Positions 1-33,191 of a DNA stretch of 39,413 nt are shown in pieces. The stretch is from a virus (Duplodnaviria; Heunggongvirae; Uroviricota; Caudoviricetes): the IMG/VR virus record IMGVR_UViG_2703718855_000002. One strand, written 5' to 3'. The position numbers and the translations under genes are program-made. Each line of letters opens with the position of its first letter. The stretch's first letter is position 1. The notes beneath the pieces are model-generated. The model saw only the letters and a program-made list of their open reading frames with translations. It was not told the DNA's origin and ran no database searches.

Positions 1-1257
1 GTGCTTACCGATACAAAATTAAAAAACCTCAAGCCGCAGGACAAACTGTACAAGGTCTCCGATCGTGACGGGCTGTATGTAGCTGTGCTTACGTCAGGCA
101 CGGTCTCGTTTCGCTATGACTACCGTATCAACGGTCGCCGCGAAACACTGGTAATCGGGCAGTATGGGCGTGACGGTATCAGCCTGGCAGAAGCGCGAGA
201 AGAACTGATTGCTGCAAAGAAGCTGCTTAAAGCAGGCCAGTCACCGGCTGCGGCTAAACGTGACGGTATCAAAAAGATTCGTGGTGCCGAGACGTTTGCG
301 GTACATACCGACAGTTATATGAAACACGTCATCCTGGCTGACAGTACCCGCGCAATGAAGCAGGCGGTGATCGACCGTGACATACTTCCAGTTCTTGGCA
401 ACAAAATGATGACTGAAATTACCACATCGATGGTTCGTGATTTGTGTGACCGGATTGTCGAACGCGGTGGTCGGGCAACAGCAGTACAGGCAAGGGAGAT
501 CATCAGCAGCGTATACCGTCACGCCAATGACCGTGGTCATGGTTTGTTTAATCCTGCGGCTGACATTAAACCTTCGTCTATCGCCATATTTAAACCACGA
601 GAGCGAACACTGACACCAGAAGAAATTGGCCTGTTCTTCCGCACGCTGGATGCCATTGGTGCTATGGGCACTATGAAAATGGCTTTAAAGCTGGTGCTTA
701 TCACTATGGTTCGTAAAGGCGAGTTCACCAATGCAACGTGGGATGAAATAGATTTTAAAAAATGGACATGGACAATTCCTTCAGACCGCATGAAGGGAAG
801 CCGGGCGCACGTTATTTACCTGCCTAAACAGGCACAGGATATATTGGTCGGGTTACAGATGTGCGCTGGTGGAAGTGAATATCTGGCTCCTGGTCGTTAC
901 AATTTCCGGAAGCCATTATCTAATGCCGCGCTGAACTCTCTGATCGACAGAACGGTGAAAATAATAAATGAAGATGGTGAGCATATTCAGGATTTCACCG
1001 TACACGATATGCGCCGTACAGCCAGTACGTTGTTGCATGAGGCTGGTTATCCTTCAGACTGGATTGAAAAGGCTCTGGCACATGAGCAGAAAGGTGTGCG
1101 CGCCGTATATAACAAAGCGGAATACGCAAGACAGCGCGCCTACATGTTGCAGCAGTGGGCCGATATGATTGATTCCTGGATTGACGGGGAGCATACGGAT
1201 CTGATTCCGTTCTCCCCGTCGAAGTTTGAGAAGTGGATGGAAGACAGTAATAAATAA
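1..1257 (+). CDS. int: Tyrosine recombinase / phage integrase (P4-type), GTG start at window position 1
   Basis: 418-aa ORF; N-terminus MLTDTKLKNLKPQDKLYKVSDRDGLY and C-terminal HDMRRTASTLL...VYNKAEYARQRAYMLQQWADMI typical of P4-family integrases; located at prophage end. Confidence 0.85.
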   Translation: MLTDTKLKNLKPQDKLYKVSDRDGLYVAVLTSGTVSFRYDYRINGRRETLVIGQYGRDGISLAEAREELIAAKKLLKAGQSPAAAKRDGIKKIRGAETFAVHTDSYMKHVILADSTRAMKQAVIDRDILPVLGNKMMTEITTSMVRDLCDRIVERGGRATAVQAREIISSVYRHANDRGHGLFNPAADIKPSSIAIFKPRERTLTPEEIGLFFRTLDAIGAMGTMKMALKLVLITMVRKGEFTNATWDEIDFKKWTWTIPSDRMKGSRAHVIYLPKQAQDILVGLQMCAGGSEYLAPGRYNFRKPLSNAALNSLIDRTVKIINEDGEHIQDFTVHDMRRTASTLLHEAGYPSDWIEKALAHEQKGVRAVYNKAEYARQRAYMLQQWADMIDSWIDGEHTDLIPFSPSKFEKWMEDSNK

Positions 1258-1259
1258 TT

Positions 1260-1919
1260 CTATCCTTCCTGGACTTTGGTAAGCGTCAGATTTCCGCAGA
1301 ACACTGCGCCGGTGTCGATGTACATCTGGTTTGCATACACCAGTGGGTGATGTGCTGGCGTATGACCGAAGATGAACAAATCGGCACCGGTTATCTCCGA
1401 GACAATACCGTCCTGCGCGTCGCTAACCCGCTCACGATTCCATATCACCATTTCTTCTGGTACTGGCTTATCGAATGCGTATTCGTTGTGCGGGTAGTCT
1501 GCGTGACAGATGACGACCTTCTTATTGCCGGTAACCAGTTCGATAATCATCGGGAGGTTGGTAATCTTTGGCAGAAGGTATTTGAGTTGCACATCCTGCT
1601 CAGAATCAAGTTGGTGCCACCATCCACCGCCGTTTGACATCCAATGTCCGAAACTTCCGCCGTTGACCAGTGCATCCAGCATCATCTGCTCATGGTTGCC
1701 ACGAACAGCTCGGAACCACGGCATAGTAATCAAATCCAGGCATTCGACGTTTTCAGCGCCGCGGTCAACAAGGTCACCAACGGAAATAAGTAAATCGCGC
1801 GCCGGGTCGAATGAAACTTTGTCGAGTTCGTTCATCAGCAGCGTGTAGCACCCATGCAGATCGCCGACGACGAAGATATTGCACCAGTCAGCGCCATTGA
1901 TGCGTTGATATAGGTTCAT
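1260..1919 (-). CDS. Ser/Thr protein phosphatase (lambda PP-like metallophosphatase)
   Basis: Motifs GDLHG, GDLVDRG and GNHE in the 220-aa product from ATG at 1919; ATGA overlap with upstream gene. Confidence 0.85.
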
Positions 1920-2566
1920 GCTGCACGCTCCCGCCCCTGGTTGTCTATTGGTGACACCGGAGCATTGCTGAATGCATTTGTTAATCCGCCAATATCCAAC
2001 GCGTATCCAGGGTGTAGTTGCACTGCCGGGTCTTCGCACTGATTACCCCAAACATCGAAGCCATGAGACGACTGGCGGGCGAACAGTTCAATGCGAGAAA
2101 CATCGCCTAACAATTGCACAAGTTTTTCACGAACGACATCTGGTTTTCTTGAATGCTCAAGCCGCGGTGCGGTAAATGACTGAACGATCCCTGCATTAAT
2201 GCGCGTAGGTAGTTTTCCCTTAACTGCAAACAGGCAATCTTCACTATTGGCGCGAGTCATGTGCCCCATACCCATAACCAGTTTATCTGGTTGTCGACTA
2301 CCACATTTTATCCACGTGAAGCCCTTCATGGTCATCAGACGGAATCCCCAGGCTTCAACAACTTTTAGTGCTTCGAGTGGTTGTGTTGGCACCCACCACA
2401 TGGCCAACAGACAGTTTTCACCGGCCAAATCCCACACAGGAAGGCGGCAGATATCCAGCACACTCATAACAGGATATTTAAAGCCGGCACCGCGATTACC
2501 ATCTGCGGCTTTGTCCCGGTATACCCAGGGTGGATCTGCATAGATTAGTGTGTATTTCTTAGTCAT
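1916..2566 (-). CDS. MT-A70 family N6-adenine DNA methyltransferase
   Basis: YADPPW motif near N-terminus ([14 protein letters not shown]); ATG at 2566 preceded by GGGGTGG; alternative GTG start at 2578. Confidence 0.8.
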
Positions 2567-2825
2567 AAACCACCCCACAACATCCTATGCCGCTATAGTC
2601 GCCACGGCGAAGGCCGTTACCTTTTGTGATACATTGGTCCCTGCGAACAGCGATCCTTGCACGCTCAACATCACCAGAAGCAACATCCATACACTGAAGC
2701 CAAAGGTGGGCGGCAATGCGGAACTGCCCTTTTTTCTCTCTTTCAATCGCGCGTTTTTCGATCTCTATCGCCGCAGGAGTAACGGCAACAACCTTTGAAT
2801 GGCTGCGCATTGAAACCTTGTTCAT
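2559..2825 (-). CDS. Hypothetical small protein
   Basis: ORF in track 2559..2858; ATG at 2825 chosen, alternative ATG at 2810 has better AAGG spacing; overlaps methylase start by 8 nt. Confidence 0.35.
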   Translation of the reverse strand: MNKVSMRSHSKVVAVTPAAIEIEKRAIEREKKGQFRIAAHLWLQCMDVASGDVERARIAVRRDQCITKGNGLRRGDYSGIGCCGVVYD

Positions 2826-2967
2826 GTGATATTTTTCAAGTCGGCTTAACTTTCTCACTTAATCCAACCCTCTCTGAAAATTAATGCCAGCAGATAAAGC
2901 CATGCTGAAACAGAGGCCAGGAATAAGTACCATCCTGACCATTTGCTCCAGTGCCTTAGCAGCGCAC

Positions 2968-3216
2968 TCATGCAGCGTTGCTCACAGGACGATATACACG
3001 TTGCTGAACAGGAGGCTTTTTACCCTGGAACTCTGCCGGGCTTGCTGCCTGACGTTCATCAAGCCAACGCTCAACTTCATCACGGTTCCATGCGCAGCGT
3101 TTATCGGTGATATACCAGCGTTTAGGAAATTCCCCTGCGCGCTCCATACGGTCGATAGTGCTCCATGACAGTGGCACCACCGCCAGGAGTTCCTTCTTAC
3201 CTAATGCACCTTTCAT
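2968..3216 (-). CDS. AlpA-family transcriptional regulator / excisionase-like DNA-binding protein
   Basis: 82 aa; LLAVVPLSWSTIDRMERAGEFPKRW...AWNRDEVERWL matches AlpA/HTH_17 pattern; SD AGAGAGGT upstream of ATG 3216. Confidence 0.7.
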   Translation of the reverse strand: MKGALGKKELLAVVPLSWSTIDRMERAGEFPKRWYITDKRCAWNRDEVERWLDERQAASPAEFQGKKPPVQQRVYRPVSNAA

Positions 3217-3265
3217 AAATACCTCTCTTGGTTGCAGTGCGGCGCGCGTGGCGCCGCGGTGGTGG

Positions 3266-4147
3266 TTACATAGATGTTTCGTTTAATTCTTCCCGACGAA
3301 CGCTGTAAACGTCGGTGGCTTTTGCCAGCAGTTCGTCATCATCTGAAAGTTTTTGTGCAATGTATTTGTAAGCCTTATCCAGTTCGGAGACAGTGATGTA
3401 ATTCATCGCTGCGCTGGTAAAGGCCATCAGCATTTCTTCTGGATCACGGCTATCCGCTTTACGCGTTTGCTCATCAGGCTTTTTCGCTGGTTTAGCGTTG
3501 ATCAGACTGTTCATTCCCGCAGCAGTGGTCGTTTGCGGAGTAATGTCTCGCTCAACGCGCGGTGCCGTTTCCTGTAATTCGTCAGGGGTGTAAACACCGA
3601 GAAGTACATCAGGAGCGTGCAGGCGAGCCCATCGTTTCGTGCAAAGATAGGCAAGCTGCTGGCGCGGATCCTGTTCCCACAATGGAGAGTTACGCACTCC
3701 GGCTTGCGCCATACTGATGGTAAGCTCACGGGGTTCTGCTTCTCCTTTAAGAACTGCTGACACAGTTACCGTCAGATTCGGTGATTTATCTGTTTTGCCG
3801 TTAACATTCGACCAGTCACCGCTCCAGCGATAATTCAGGCGTGTCGCTAGCAGGCTGGAAGAGGATACGACCGCGTTTACCAACTGTGCTTCGTAGCCTA
3901 ACGTTCCGTTTACCACATGCGTTTTCTGCGCCACGGCGAAAGGATTCATTCCCCACTGTGCCGCCTGCATGGTCACCGCCAGACAATCGGCAGGTTTGCC
4001 TTCAAGATGTTTCGGTACAGTCGCTTTGCTTTGTGACATCAACTCCGCGAAACGCACCAGTTGATTCATGCCCTCCGGGCTGAAGATTGCCGCAGCAGTA
4101 CCTACAGTTGCGCCTGGTTGTGATGTGATTGCGATATCATTGCTCAT
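3266..4147 (-). CDS. Single-strand annealing protein (RecT/Bet-like recombinase)
   Basis: 293 aa; start ATG overlaps stop of upstream exonuclease (ATGA), the classic exo-SSAP pair; family assignment from memory, not searched. Confidence 0.55.
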   Translation of the reverse strand: MSNDIAITSQPGATVGTAAAIFSPEGMNQLVRFAELMSQSKATVPKHLEGKPADCLAVTMQAAQWGMNPFAVAQKTHVVNGTLGYEAQLVNAVVSSSSLLATRLNYRWSGDWSNVNGKTDKSPNLTVTVSAVLKGEAEPRELTISMAQAGVRNSPLWEQDPRQQLAYLCTKRWARLHAPDVLLGVYTPDELQETAPRVERDITPQTTTAAGMNSLINAKPAKKPDEQTRKADSRDPEEMLMAFTSAAMNYITVSELDKAYKYIAQKLSDDDELLAKATDVYSVRREELNETSM

Positions 4148-5435: not shown

Positions 5436-5450
5436 TTACCGTTTAGGTAA
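5436..5450. promoter_or_regulatory. Operator-like palindrome TTACCGTTTAGGTAA (left operator region)
   Basis: Perfect TTACC-N5-GGTAA; 62 bp from site 5498. Confidence 0.5.
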
Positions 5451-5497
5451 TAATTATGCGTATTTGGTTTGATGTCAATAGATATGAGTTAAAAAAA

Positions 5498-5569: not shown

Positions 5570-6154
5570 TTATTGTTTGTTTTTTTCGTTCTGGTTGATG
5601 ACAAATTCAATGTAACTTTCGATCTTTGCTTTCTCGGTTTCAGGTAACAATGCGTAGCGCGAGCGGTCATAGTTGATAGTTGCAGGGTCGTGCGGGTGAA
5701 TCAGTAGTTCATATCCGTGACGCCCGAATGCAGATGCAACATTCTCCAGGGTGGAAATGGAAACGCTGACCTCATTGTTTAACAGGCGGCTGATTGTCAC
5801 CTGGGCGACGCCGGATGCGCGGTGAAGTTTTCCCTGTGTTGAAAGGTCGCGGCTTTCGCTCATCCAGCGTTCCAGGTTGTGAGCCGCCAGCTGACCAATG
5901 TCGCTTGGGCCGACAGGCTGAAAACCTTCCTGAGAAAGCGAGCGATCGATATCAAGCCAGTTACGGGGTTTATTGGCGGCAGCTTCAATTTTTCGCGCAA
6001 CCTGGTCGCCGATAACCTTCTTGCCAAGAGCCCAGCGGTTTACCAGATTTGCCTGAGTTCCAAGTTTTTCAGCCATCCGCGTCTGAACACCATTGAATTC
6101 ACGGTCGATCAAGTCGTTGAGATTTTGCCTGCGGACGTCCTGGATACTTTTCAT
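5570..6154 (-). CDS. Prophage repressor (CI-like, XRE-type HTH, no S24 peptidase domain)
   Basis: 194 aa; N-terminal HTH (TRMAEKLGTQANLVNRWALGKK); divergent from Cro-like gene with palindromic operators on both sides; C-terminal half has a second HTH-like segment (ASGVAQVTISRLLN). Confidence 0.7.
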   Translation of the reverse strand: MKSIQDVRRQNLNDLIDREFNGVQTRMAEKLGTQANLVNRWALGKKVIGDQVARKIEAAANKPRNWLDIDRSLSQEGFQPVGPSDIGQLAAHNLERWMSESRDLSTQGKLHRASGVAQVTISRLLNNEVSVSISTLENVASAFGRHGYELLIHPHDPATINYDRSRYALLPETEKAKIESYIEFVINQNEKNKQ

Positions 6155-14516: not shown

Positions 14517-14592
14517 TGGCGTGGCATGCAGGATTCGAACCTGCGACCAACCGCTTAGAAGGCGGTTGCTCTGTCCAACTGAGCTAATGCCA
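14517..14592 (-). tRNA. tRNA-Arg (anticodon UCU)
   Basis: Reverse complement folds as cloverleaf: 7-bp acceptor stem GTGGCAT/ATGCCAC, anticodon loop CUUCUAA, T-arm GGTTCGAATCC, discriminator G, encoded CCA. Confidence 0.85.
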
Positions 14593-14915
14593 CAACGCTG
14601 AGAGCACTTAGCCTGTTAAGGCGCCACATTTTGTCGCGGCTCCATAAATGCTCTCATCGTTGTACCCTCGTCTCTTCCGAGGCGTCACACCGAATCGCCG
14701 GGATGGTGAATCCCCGTGCGCGGAATAAAACCGCTCGACTTGCACATTCCGGCTACCTGGTTCGTTTGCCCGAGCAAGGGAGGGTGCCCCTTAAACGTAT
14801 CCAGACCGCTATCGGCGCATGTGCCATACGCCGTACTGCTCAAAATAAAAGCTCACTCCACCTGTTCAATTTAACGACAAGCCAGTCAGGTTAATAACCG
14901 GAATGAACTCTTTGG

Positions 14916-32211: not shown

Positions 32212-32922
32212 TCAGAAGAACCCAGCCTTGTCGTTGATGTACTCCGCGTGCGTCTGGATATCACGCAGGCATTTGCTCACACCGACGATGTAGCAGAACA
32301 TGGTGGTCAGTTCCGCCGCCGCGCCCGATACGTCGTGCCCGTCTTCCTGTAACTGGTTTAGCAGATTCATCAGCAGTGAGCTCTCCGTCAGGCCGAGAAC
32401 ACCAGACGGCGAATGAATCAGGCTACGGTAGCCTGGCTTCAGTGGGGCACTGTAGGTTTTGTTCTCTATCTTCATTGCCTGCATCACTGCTGATGCTGTG
32501 GCGTTGGCTACCTGGTCGGCAACCATCTTTATGCGTTCTTCCTGCGGGAGCGAGTTTTTAATGTAACTTCCGGTGCGGCGGATCTGAGGAAGAACCTCAC
32601 CTGTAACCCATTTACGAAAGCGGTAGGGGATAGTGCCTGGTGTCACCGCATCGCGGCAGCGGAGGATCAGTGTGTAGAGGCCTGACTCGGAGATGATGTT
32701 GATCTCTTTTACTCGGCTATCAAAAATTGCACGATGTTCATGCCCTATGTTGAACATAGACCTTTCATCATCATCCAGTTTTTCAAGTGATTGGGTGACG
32801 TTTTGGATACGCAGCGCACTACAAACGTCTTGGGCTACAAACCATGGTTGGCCATCGATAATGATGGAACGGATAGGGTTAACAGATTCAAATTTGAAGA
32901 TGGCAGTTTGAGCATTAGCCAT
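32212..32922 (-). CDS. Antirepressor (N-terminal Bro-N domain)
   Basis: FKFESVNPIRSIIIDGQPWFVAQDVCSALRI matches Bro-N; C-terminal 60 aa paralogous to product of 33238..33495; ATG 32922 with SD GGAGA. Confidence 0.7.
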   Translation of the reverse strand: MANAQTAIFKFESVNPIRSIIIDGQPWFVAQDVCSALRIQNVTQSLEKLDDDERSMFNIGHEHRAIFDSRVKEINIISESGLYTLILRCRDAVTPGTIPYRFRKWVTGEVLPQIRRTGSYIKNSLPQEERIKMVADQVANATASAVMQAMKIENKTYSAPLKPGYRSLIHSPSGVLGLTESSLLMNLLNQLQEDGHDVSGAAAELTTMFCYIVGVSKCLRDIQTHAEYINDKAGFF

Positions 32923-33077
32923 GGTGGTTATCTCCACTTAGTGATTTTAATCACCACCGCAACGCCAATTACTGGTGGTGAACTGGACAAGGTTGGCGTA
33001 CCGGCCTAAGTGGTACCGGCGTCCTTTCGGACCCCTGCCCAGCCCACCATAATTCGGATATGGCTGTGTTTAACGCA

Positions 33078-33101
33078 TAAAAAAACCACGTCTGGCGTGG
33101 T
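33078..33101 (-). terminator. Rho-independent terminator downstream of small antirepressor-like gene
   Basis: Minus-strand hairpin ACCACG-CCAGA-CGTGGT followed by TTTTTTT. Confidence 0.5.
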
Positions 33102-33191
33102 ATGCGCCACTTAGTAACTCGGGACGCCAATCCCGGCACTGGATTTTGCCAGTGCCCGATTACTATGGCACAAGAGGAGTGCGATGTAAAT

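Follow-up and report, generated by a model that had tools for sequence, protein, structure and literature searches.

The locus studied here raises the question of whether three tightly packed genes next to a phage integrase work together or are independent of each other. They encode a Ser/Thr phosphatase, an MT-A70 methyltransferase and a small protein, and they are located at one end of the window, by which we mean the whole stretch of 39,413 nucleotides that was analysed. An earlier note on this DNA had read the three genes as a single coordinated module for counter-defence and host takeover, an interpretation that is partly supported overall. We consider it likely that the trio closes the leftward early operon, which serves recombination and excision, and consists of three independent accessory genes without a co-functional module. 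Three points are useful: the small protein can be assigned and its start has to be corrected, the trio probably does not constitute a functional unit, and the methylase position is occupied in all relatives compared.

Position of the trio and its gene junctions

The window is a phiV10/epsilon15-like (Uetakevirus) prophage adjoining guaA, which is a common E. coli prophage. At the nucleotide level it is 100% identical to the chromosome of E. coli VG48B2, where guaA lies immediately upstream of the prophage. It is 98.5% identical to the phages PAS61 and BP9 and, with the phosphatase part left out, 98% identical to phiV10. The trio is already known, as its genes bear these names in E. coli genomes of RefSeq and in the isolated phage PAS61. 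An Rfam scan of positions 1-3300 returned no RNA family.

The tyrosine integrase (1..1257, plus strand, 418 aa) shows the domains Arm-DNA-bind_3, Phage_int_M and Phage_integrase and is convergent with the accessory genes. Its TAA stop at 1255-1257 is followed by TT at 1258-1259, after which comes the minus-strand stop of the phosphatase gene (TAG 1262-1260). The start of the phosphatase gene (ATG 1919-1917) and the stop of the methylase gene (TGA 1918-1916) form an ATGA overlap, and the methylase start (ATG 2566-2564) and the stop of the small, PerC-family gene (TAA 2561-2559) share the 8 nt at 2559-2566. The sequence thus confirms what the earlier note had said of the layout, namely three minus-strand genes at 1260-2858 with ATGA and 8-nt overlaps and a gap of 2 bp to the integrase stop.

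The same kind of junction continues upstream. A 38-aa ORF with one hydrophobic helix (2855..2971, minus strand, from the ORF list) is a homologue of PhiV10p35, which is called a membrane protein in the phiV10 annotation. It bridges the AlpA and PerC genes with a 4-nt overlap at each end, GTGA at the GTG start of the PerC-family gene and ATGA at the junction to the AlpA-type gene. This ORF is absent from the account given in the earlier note. The AlpA-type gene (2968..3216, minus strand) encodes an excisionase/regulator of 82 aa, with matches to PF05930 (24.2 bits vs 21) and to phrog_66, excisionase and transcriptional regulator. The chain of 4-nt and 8-nt overlaps from AlpA via p35, PerC and the methylase to the phosphatase is unbroken and, judged from these junctions, it is translationally coupled.

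On the minus strand, a consensus scan yielded a sole sigma-70-like match upstream of the trio, TTGACA-17-AATTAT at 5450..5478, which we consider a candidate early-left promoter. The same type of scan gave neither a promoter-like nor a terminator-like minus-strand site from 5450 down to 1260. The operon structure of the leftward genes is a candidate one, read entirely from consensus scans, and the trio lies where a seemingly repressed lytic operon would end. The conserved Uetakevirus early-left order of RecT, AlpA, p35, PerC, cargo that varies but includes one adenine methylase, and convergent int is found here as well. The order of AlpA, PerC, adenine methylase and convergent int was constant in all 21 related loci that we compared; RecT and p35 each went undetected in a few (for p35, found in 18 of the 21, in L016, L018 and L026).

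The three genes lie side by side on one strand with translational coupling, which speaks for a single counter-defence or host-takeover module. However, the tight coupling characterizes the whole operon from AlpA on and is not specific to the trio. The three genes also assort independently of each other. Of ∼546 near-identical E. coli prophages, 143 (∼26%) carry the phosphatase, as does 1 of the 21 cross-species loci; the methylase is swapped for an unrelated Dam in 7 of the 21, and PerC is constant. For a module one may cite that restriction protection is common for orphan phage methylases (PMC10810198), that phages and host defences contend over phosphorylation, where a T7 kinase disarms defences (PMC13645617), and that a kinase of a T7-like phage inactivates DndFGH (PMC12345140). 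On the other hand, neither the phosphatase nor PerC matched a PADLOC or anti-defence family, and we regard a coordinated module as quite improbable. The grouping of the trio as a set in the earlier note is not borne out by these distributions. Its description of a variable integrase-adjacent region holds insofar as the region varies among relatives and fails for the PerC part, which is conserved backbone. The proposed counter-defence role is plausible, by inference, for the methylase alone; for lambda-type phosphatases we found no such role in the literature.

The phosphatase and the final slot before the integrase

The leftward operon ends with a gene in a swappable position (1260..1919, minus strand), which encodes a lambda NinI-type Ser/Thr protein phosphatase of the PPP family with 219 aa. 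The protein matched PF00149 Metallophos (E 1.4e-15, 58.7 bits vs a gathering score of 21.5) and the NinI-like family phrog_246 (E 8.6e-108). The alignment with the lambda phosphatase structure PDB 1G5B was colinear and gapless (336 bits, E 9e-100). The amino acid identity was 67% to lambda NinI and 79% to HK225 NinI. The motifs GDxHG, GDxVDRG and GNHE as well as the downstream metal-binding histidines are identical to those of lambda NinI, and in gapless alignments to 1G5B and lambda NinI the residues D20, H22, D49, R53, N75, H76, H139, R162 and H186 are all kept. The lambda residues D20, H22, D49, N75, H76, H139 and H186 belong to these motifs and histidines, and every residue with a metal-binding or catalytic role is retained. 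The protein is an intact orthologue of lambda NinI, and at the sequence level its catalytic machinery is complete. Together with the matches of the methylase given below, these Pfam, PHROG and structure-relative matches show that the phosphatase and MT-A70 family calls of the earlier note were correct. The scores stayed below the NCBIfam equivalog cut-offs PRK11439 (266 bits vs 326) and PRK09968 (221.6 vs 332), and the protein is classed as a relative of the host PrpA/PrpB and not as an equivalog.

The orthologues in lambda (ORF221; PDB 1G5B), HK225 and phi80 have the same length and are colinear without gaps with the phosphatase described here. The genomic setting differs. In lambda and HK225, ninI is found between ninE/ninH and Q in the nin region of the rightward operon, whereas here the phosphatase gene is not in a nin region but ends the leftward operon, abuts the integrase and is coupled to the methylase. 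This location does not affect its family membership because position is no biochemical criterion. Nor is the gene a recent copy of ninI, as the closest ninI of a nin region shares just ∼78% DNA identity with it.

Comparison with phiV10 places the junctions of the swap in the last codons of int and precisely at the ATGA overlap. In the remaining near-identical E. coli prophages DUF1382 or the antirepressor Ant/AntB is found instead. It would appear that a precise exchange of cassettes brought the phosphatase into the final slot before the integrase. During lytic growth it most likely dephosphorylates proteins of the host or the phage at Ser/Thr/Tyr residues. The ninI gene of lambda is non-essential and has been called poorly understood. 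A search of the literature for a natural or counter-defence role of lambda-type phosphatases returned nothing beyond reagent use, the dispensability of the gene and contacts with N and Q in two-hybrid assays; a mycobacteriophage metallophosphoesterase, Gp48, disrupts DNA. With its slot filled either by the phosphatase or by DUF1382, the locus provides natural isogenic pairs in which the role of the lambda-type phosphatase can be probed.

Two other activities of the phosphatase were considered. The substrates of the protein could be cyclic phosphates or the ends of nucleic acids, as in RNA end healing of the 2',3'-cyclic phosphodiesterase type, or the protein could serve the lysogen by reversing phosphorylation by the kinases of superinfecting T7-like phages and thereby protect host defences. 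For the former there are weak matches to the phosphatase domain of the bacterial polynucleotide kinase-phosphatase (TIGR04075) and to ApaH-type Ap4A hydrolases, and 2',3'-cyclic phosphodiesterase activity of the lambda phosphatase has been reported in vitro. The latter would fit the disarming of host defences by phosphorylation through phage kinases (PMC13645617; PMC12345140). With 67-79% identity to NinI proteins of documented phosphoprotein activity, however, protein dephosphorylation is the default. Expression in the lysogen is doubtful, because the operon at whose end the gene lies is apparently repressed and there is no promoter-like site of its own. As we also found no support in the literature for a nucleic-acid-end or lysogen-protection role, we give these activities hardly any probability and keep to dephosphorylation of proteins.

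A broader reading takes the stretch from PerC to int in Uetakevirus as a dedicated exchange site for host-interaction cargo. It would consist of one obligatory adenine methyltransferase position, whose MT-A70 version possibly acts on DNA and rRNA and sets the induction rate, and of a terminal slot with alternative effectors, including a phosphatase directed against phosphorylation-based conflict. The kinases of competing T7-like phages and kinase-based host defences could be examples of such conflict. We consider this a long shot. If it were true, it would provide the first biological function for the lambda phosphatase, a standard laboratory reagent. The reading that we prefer remains that of independent accessory genes.

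The PerC-family protein

The small gene had been described as unassigned and as extending over 2559..2825. We assign it to the PerC family and place it at 2559..2858 (minus strand, GTG start, 99 aa). Its product matched PF06069 above the threshold (30.4 bits vs a gathering score of 22.6), with ∼46 residues aligned over residues 24-69 of the 88-aa form, and phrog_868 with E 2.7e-54; the PHROG matches of all three ORFs ranged from E 1e-54 to 1e-119. RefSeq also names the protein PerC-family, and most homologues carry the name 'PerC family transcriptional regulator' and the same precomputed Pfam match. The score was below the cut-off of the NCBIfam ANR (AraC negative regulator) model NF033650 (24 bits vs 32). 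As for the start, the gene almost certainly begins at GTG 2858 (99 aa) and not at ATG 2825 (88 aa). In epsilon15 and SPN1S the first 11 residues of the 99-aa form are conserved while residue 12 is Leu and not Met, and a Shine-Dalgarno-like GAGAGGG is located ahead of GTG 2858. The annotations disagree on this point, with the short 88-aa form in the phiV10 RefSeq record and the 99-aa form in PGAP and PAS61, and the earlier note had made the short call.

PerC was present in 21 of 21 loci and was coupled to whichever gene came next, DUF1317, Dam or MT-A70. This distribution marks it as a conserved backbone gene and not as variable cargo. A word-indexed search returned a narrow enterobacterial subfamily with at least 53% identity among the matches listed, and no canonical PerC or Pch was among them. 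The search for solved structures by sequence gave nothing significant, and the TPR-like fold match that we obtained is generic. The LF82 'Gally' prophage was set aside as a lead on PerC, as Gally is P22-like.

Like the protein studied here, PerC of EPEC and the prophage-encoded Pch of EHEC (PchA-E) are small, helical, prophage-borne members of PF06069. The relationship is distant, with the profile alignment limited to the ∼46 residues given above. PerC and Pch are associated with LEE activation (LEE1/ler) or relief of H-NS silencing, the latter in the case of Pch (PMC4764244). By analogy the PerC-family protein, which is predicted to be small, all-helical and TPR-like and which follows AlpA and p35, would most likely act on transcription through protein or nucleoid contacts, e.g. 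by relieving H-NS silencing.

The methylase slot and its relatives

The methylase gene (1916..2566, minus strand) encodes an orphan N6-adenine methyltransferase of the MT-A70 family with 216 aa and the motif DPPW at residues 11-14. It matched PF05063 MT-A70 over profile positions 1-172 of 172 (E 1.6e-21, 77.5 bits vs a gathering score of 23.9), the DNA methyltransferase family phrog_359 (E 1.2e-119) and PADLOC MTase_II (E 1.2e-77). It was the sole match among the trio in the PADLOC scan, as a type II methyltransferase. Its best solved relatives are the ciliate MTA1-type enzymes and METTL3.

In all 21 related loci, exactly one adenine methylase separates PerC or its following genes from int. 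The slot is occupied by MT-A70 in 14 of these and by the unrelated Dam family PF05869 in the other 7, and in 2 of the 7 Dam loci the Dam is fused or adjacent to a C5 methylase. A slot that is always filled by MT-A70 or by an unrelated Dam makes N6-adenine methylation of DNA the most likely selected function of the methylase. Its probable target is GATC, the site given for the close relative M.EcoGV. If the enzyme is made early after induction or infection, it would keep the fast-replicating phage DNA fully methylated, and full methylation would in turn shield this DNA from methylation-sensitive restriction.

With 151 occurrences GATC is not depleted in the phage; its observed/expected ratio of 0.74 is within the range of other 4-mer palindromes, and this frequency neither helps nor hurts the reading as a GATC methylase. 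GATC is also the site already methylated by the host Dam, which makes the benefit of a second GATC methylase questionable. The earlier note had treated the lack of a new methylated motif in the lysogen, together with a lack of phosphatase activity, as a refutation. The lack of a new motif in an uninduced lysogen would refute nothing, because the operon looks repressed and the closest relatives are listed as acting on GATC, the host Dam site.

Relatives of the methylase are listed as GATC m6A methylases (PMC10810198; PMC6602927), and overproduced M.EcoGV methylated GATC in vivo according to these sources. M.EcoPA8orf6770P, which is 83% identical to our methylase over residues 1-187 (187 aa) including DPPW, showed almost no DNA methylation in vitro, even on GATC-unmethylated DNA (PMC10810198). 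With its partner PNB-2 it preferred 16S rRNA in a SAM-consumption assay and raised spontaneous induction (PMC10810198). The assignment of this MT-A70 subfamily to GATC DNA or to 16S rRNA is disputed because of this behaviour of a close relative. The always-occupied slot with its two unrelated families of adenine methylases contributes comparative evidence to this dispute.

The methylase may then mainly be a 16S rRNA methyltransferase that tunes prophage induction, with the co-translated PerC or p35 replacing PNB-2 as the targeting subunit. Such a role would agree with the properties of M.EcoPA8orf6770P, with the RNA methylase METTL3 among the closest solved relatives, with the 8-nt overlap of the PerC gene and the methylase start, and with the conservation of the PNB-2/MT-A70 pairing in the Klebsiella phage ST101-KPC2phi6.1 and in HK639. 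However, a tblastn search across the window revealed no homologue of PNB-2 (best E 4.1), and the slot is interchangeable with Dam PF05869 and C5+Dam DNA methylases. PerC as a specificity partner analogous to PNB-2 was rejected: it is unrelated to PNB-2, in most loci, among them epsilon15, SPN1S and Tyrion, one to three genes separate it from the methylase, and elsewhere it is coupled to DUF1317 or, in L022 and L025, to a Dam-family enzyme. Furthermore, the C-terminal tail, which has been suggested to matter for PNB-2 binding in M.EcoPA8orf6770P (PMC10810198), differs after residue 187. We consider rRNA as the main target to be unlikely and retain DNA methylation as the preferred function.

M.EcoPA8orf6770P of the Stx2a phage PA8 and M.EcoGV of an E. 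coli O104:H4 Stx phage likewise occupy an integrase-proximal accessory position. The former has its PNB-2 partner, whereas the upstream gene coupled to the methylase of the window is PerC-family. The Stx phages and phiV10 share a DUF1382 gene downstream of the methylase, in phiV10 at the place where the window has the phosphatase. Gene content and order in phiV10 (p32-p36), vB_EcoP_PAS61 and VG48B2 (locus QUS02_RS17055-17065) are otherwise as described here, and the phosphatase cassette of the window recurs unchanged in PAS61 and VG48B2, where all three genes are already annotated.

Gene layout and protein identities next to the integrase

We re-read all junctions base by base, and the three overlapping genes that the earlier note had placed next to the integrase were laid out correctly. 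On the minus strand the phosphatase gene runs from 1919 to 1260 (219 aa), the methylase gene from 2566 to 1916 (216 aa) and the small gene from 2858 to 2559 (99 aa, GTG start). The integrase stop (1255-1257) is followed by 2 bases and then by the phosphatase stop (1262-1260), ATGA at 1919-1916 combines the phosphatase ATG with the methylase TGA, and the methylase ATG (2566-2564) and the TAA of the small gene (2561-2559) form an 8-nt overlap. An ATG start at 2825 (88 aa) had been proposed for the small gene; we favour the longer GTG form on three grounds. Its 11 extra residues (MRKLSRLEKYH) are kept in the epsilon15 and SPN1S homologues, where the residue matching the Met of ATG 2825 is a Leu. 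A GAGAGGG motif lies nine bases 5' of GTG 2858, and no motif resembling it was read upstream of ATG 2825. Finally, a 38-aa ORF (2855-2971, minus strand), missing from the earlier gene list, has its stop in a 4-nt overlap with the GTG. This ORF encodes one hydrophobic helix, is a homologue of PhiV10p35 (a membrane protein by its phiV10 annotation) and turned up in 18 of 21 relatives. Its other end overlaps the stop of the AlpA-type gene (2968-3216, minus strand), also by 4 nt. As the ORF lies between these two genes, what seemed a 109-bp gap ahead of the small gene is coding, and AlpA through phosphatase is a single chain of translationally coupled genes.

The phosphatase and MT-A70 calls made from the sequence were right. 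The phosphatase matches the Metallophos domain and a NinI-like PHROG (E 8.6e-108), aligns without gaps to the lambda phosphatase (PDB 1G5B, E 9e-100) and is 67% identical to NinI of lambda and 79% to that of HK225. It retains D20, H22, D49, R53, N75, H76, H139, R162 and H186, which we take to be the metal-binding and catalytic residues of the lambda enzyme, and it scores under the equivalog cut-offs of the host PrpA and PrpB. In the methylase the MT-A70 domain is complete and carries DPPW at residues 11-14; the protein also matches a DNA-methyltransferase PHROG and a PADLOC type II methyltransferase model. The nearest solved structures are ciliate MTA1-type DNA methylases and METTL3.

The small protein, previously left without an assignment, scores 30.4 bits with the Pfam PerC model (threshold 22.6), matches phrog_868 'transcriptional activator' with E 2.7e-54 and does not reach the cut-off set for ANR, a related model. 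The search returned 137 relatives, all enterobacterial and mostly carrying PerC-family names, with at least 53% identity among the matches listed. AlphaFold, run with 30 of these sequences, predicts four helices and a disordered C-terminus at a mean pLDDT of 74.5 (84-91 in the core blocks). The modelled fold suggests that the protein would act via protein contacts and not through a classical DNA-binding domain. Such action would fit the relief of H-NS silencing by Pch (PMC4764244), a parallel that stays an analogy because canonical PerC and Pch were too distant to be among the relatives recovered by the search.

Over its first 3300 bases the window matches the E. coli VG48B2 chromosome (in which the integrase lies just after guaA) at 100% identity, and phages vB_EcoP_PAS61 and BP9 at 98.5-98.6%. 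Identity to epsilon15, SPN1S and Tyrion is about 80%; when the phosphatase is left out, phiV10 and its relatives match at 98%. The window, about 39 kb long, is a prophage of the Uetakevirus type. All of the trio's content is already known from public annotation: VG48B2 names a 'serine/threonine protein phosphatase', an 'MT-A70 family methyltransferase' and a 'PerC family transcriptional regulator', and the PAS61 record annotates the phosphatase and methylase in the same way.

The adenine methylase slot and the substrate of the MT-A70 enzyme

Each of the 21 related loci (the window and 20 guaA-type prophages) has exactly one adenine methyltransferase between PerC and the integrase. It is an MT-A70 enzyme in 14 (the window, L001-L003, L012, L014, L015, L021, L023, L024 and L027-L030) and a member of the Dam family PF05869, which is unrelated to MT-A70, in the other seven (L013, L016, L017, L018, L022, L025 and L026; E about 1e-58). 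In none of the 21 did the two families occur together or was the slot empty. A C5 cytosine DNA methylase is fused or adjacent to the Dam enzyme in L017 and L013. This gene content suggests that the selected function of the slot is DNA adenine methylation.

The rival reading is that the MT-A70 enzyme modifies RNA. The nearest studied relative, M.EcoPA8orf6770P of Stx2a phage PA8, is 83% identical over residues 1-187 and differs in its C-terminal tail. Gong, Chakraborty and Koudelka found this enzyme alone almost inactive on DNA, GATC-unmethylated DNA included; it binds PNB-2, which the upstream gene encodes, and as a complex the two prefer 16S rRNA; the methylase gene increases spontaneous prophage induction (PMC10810198). 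On the other hand, two papers mention relatives listed as GATC m6A methylases and GATC methylation in vivo by overproduced M.EcoGV (PMC10810198, PMC6602927). The substrate of this subfamily is thus disputed. The phage contains 151 GATC sites (observed/expected 0.74), an unremarkable number that does not discriminate between the readings. What favours DNA over RNA as the substrate of the window methylase is that an unrelated DNA methylase is swapped into the same position.

The partner arrangement of PA8 also bears on the rival. MT-A70 genes of Klebsiella phage ST101-KPC2phi6.1 and of HK639 are preceded by PNB-2 homologues with 54-55% identity (L010:1073-1501 and L009:912-1340, respectively, both plus strand), so the pairing looks real in both lineages and wider than the Stx phages. 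By tblastn no PNB-2 homologue was found anywhere in the window (best E 4.1), and in sequence comparison the PerC protein encoded upstream of the methylase shows no relation to PNB-2. The comparative data speak against PerC as a substitute partner: in most relatives the gene after PerC is DUF1317, in epsilon15, SPN1S, Tyrion and others as many as three genes intervene between PerC and the methylase, and in L022 and L025 PerC is coupled directly to a Dam-family enzyme.

Two further arrangements were seen upstream of the methylase. In Stx phage PA28 a 62-aa ORF (L005:2816-3004, plus strand) has just its last 21 residues in common with PNB-2 and looks like a recombination remnant just upstream of the methylase start. 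In SPN1S (L002:3517-4512, minus strand) and a Citrobacter werkmanii prophage (L021:5520-6512, plus strand) the gene directly upstream of MT-A70, and coupled to it, encodes a DndB-like DGQHR protein (PF14072, E 1.3e-42); E. coli CM2 combines this protein with the phosphatase in one genome.

Exchange of the phosphatase

The phosphatase is swappable cargo. In the alignment with phiV10 a 64-aa DUF1382 gene occupies exactly its place, and one swap junction lies in the final few codons of int while the other coincides exactly with the ATGA overlap. Among 546 records of complete E. coli genomes matching the region at 95% or more, 143 carry the phosphatase, most of the remainder DUF1382 and a few an Ant or AntA/AntB antirepressor. 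Across species it occurs in the window only (1/21 loci). The trio had been read as a plausible counter-defence or host-takeover set; with the phosphatase replaced by DUF1382 or an antirepressor and the methylase family exchanged, a functional set is not borne out.

In lambda-type phages ninI lies in the nin region before Q, whereas here the phosphatase gene ends the leftward operon. At the DNA level the closest nin-region copy reaches only 78% identity, so the gene did not come by recent transfer from any known lambdoid phage. In lambda, ninI is non-essential (PMC10695390) and has been termed poorly understood (PMC3224144); no paper giving it a natural role came up in our literature search.

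Leftward transcription and other control elements

A consensus scan located a sigma-70-like candidate promoter (10 of 12 matches) at 5478-5450 on the minus strand, directly preceded by a terminator-like hairpin (5549-5530, minus strand) after the repressor-like gene 5570-6154. The promoter-like site is likely the start of the leftward early operon. From 5450 down to 1260 the scan of the minus strand found no further sigma-70-like promoter and no terminator-like site, so going by these consensus matches the trio probably belongs to the early-left lytic operon and is silent in the uninduced lysogen. This matters for the methylome comparison of lysogen and cured strain proposed earlier, in which the lack of a new motif was to count against the methylase: in an uninduced lysogen such a motif might be absent simply because the gene is off or its target is the host Dam site. 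The int and phosphatase stops (1255-1262) have no terminator-like hairpin between them and leftward transcripts should therefore run antisense into int. Epsilon15 has about 150 bp with annotated RNase III sites at the int end, whereas the window has 2 bp.

Elsewhere in the window, a tRNA-Arg gene (anticodon TCT; 14517-14593, minus strand) lies between the terminase and head genes, on the opposite strand to both. Two RNAs stand in tandem at 32971-33155 (minus strand) according to Rfam, one matching the C4 antisense RNA model (66 bits) and the other that of isrK, an Hfq-binding RNA (67 bits). With a 241-aa antirepressor-like ORF just downstream (32212-32937, minus strand), the arrangement is like the immI-type c4-ant control region of P1 and P7.
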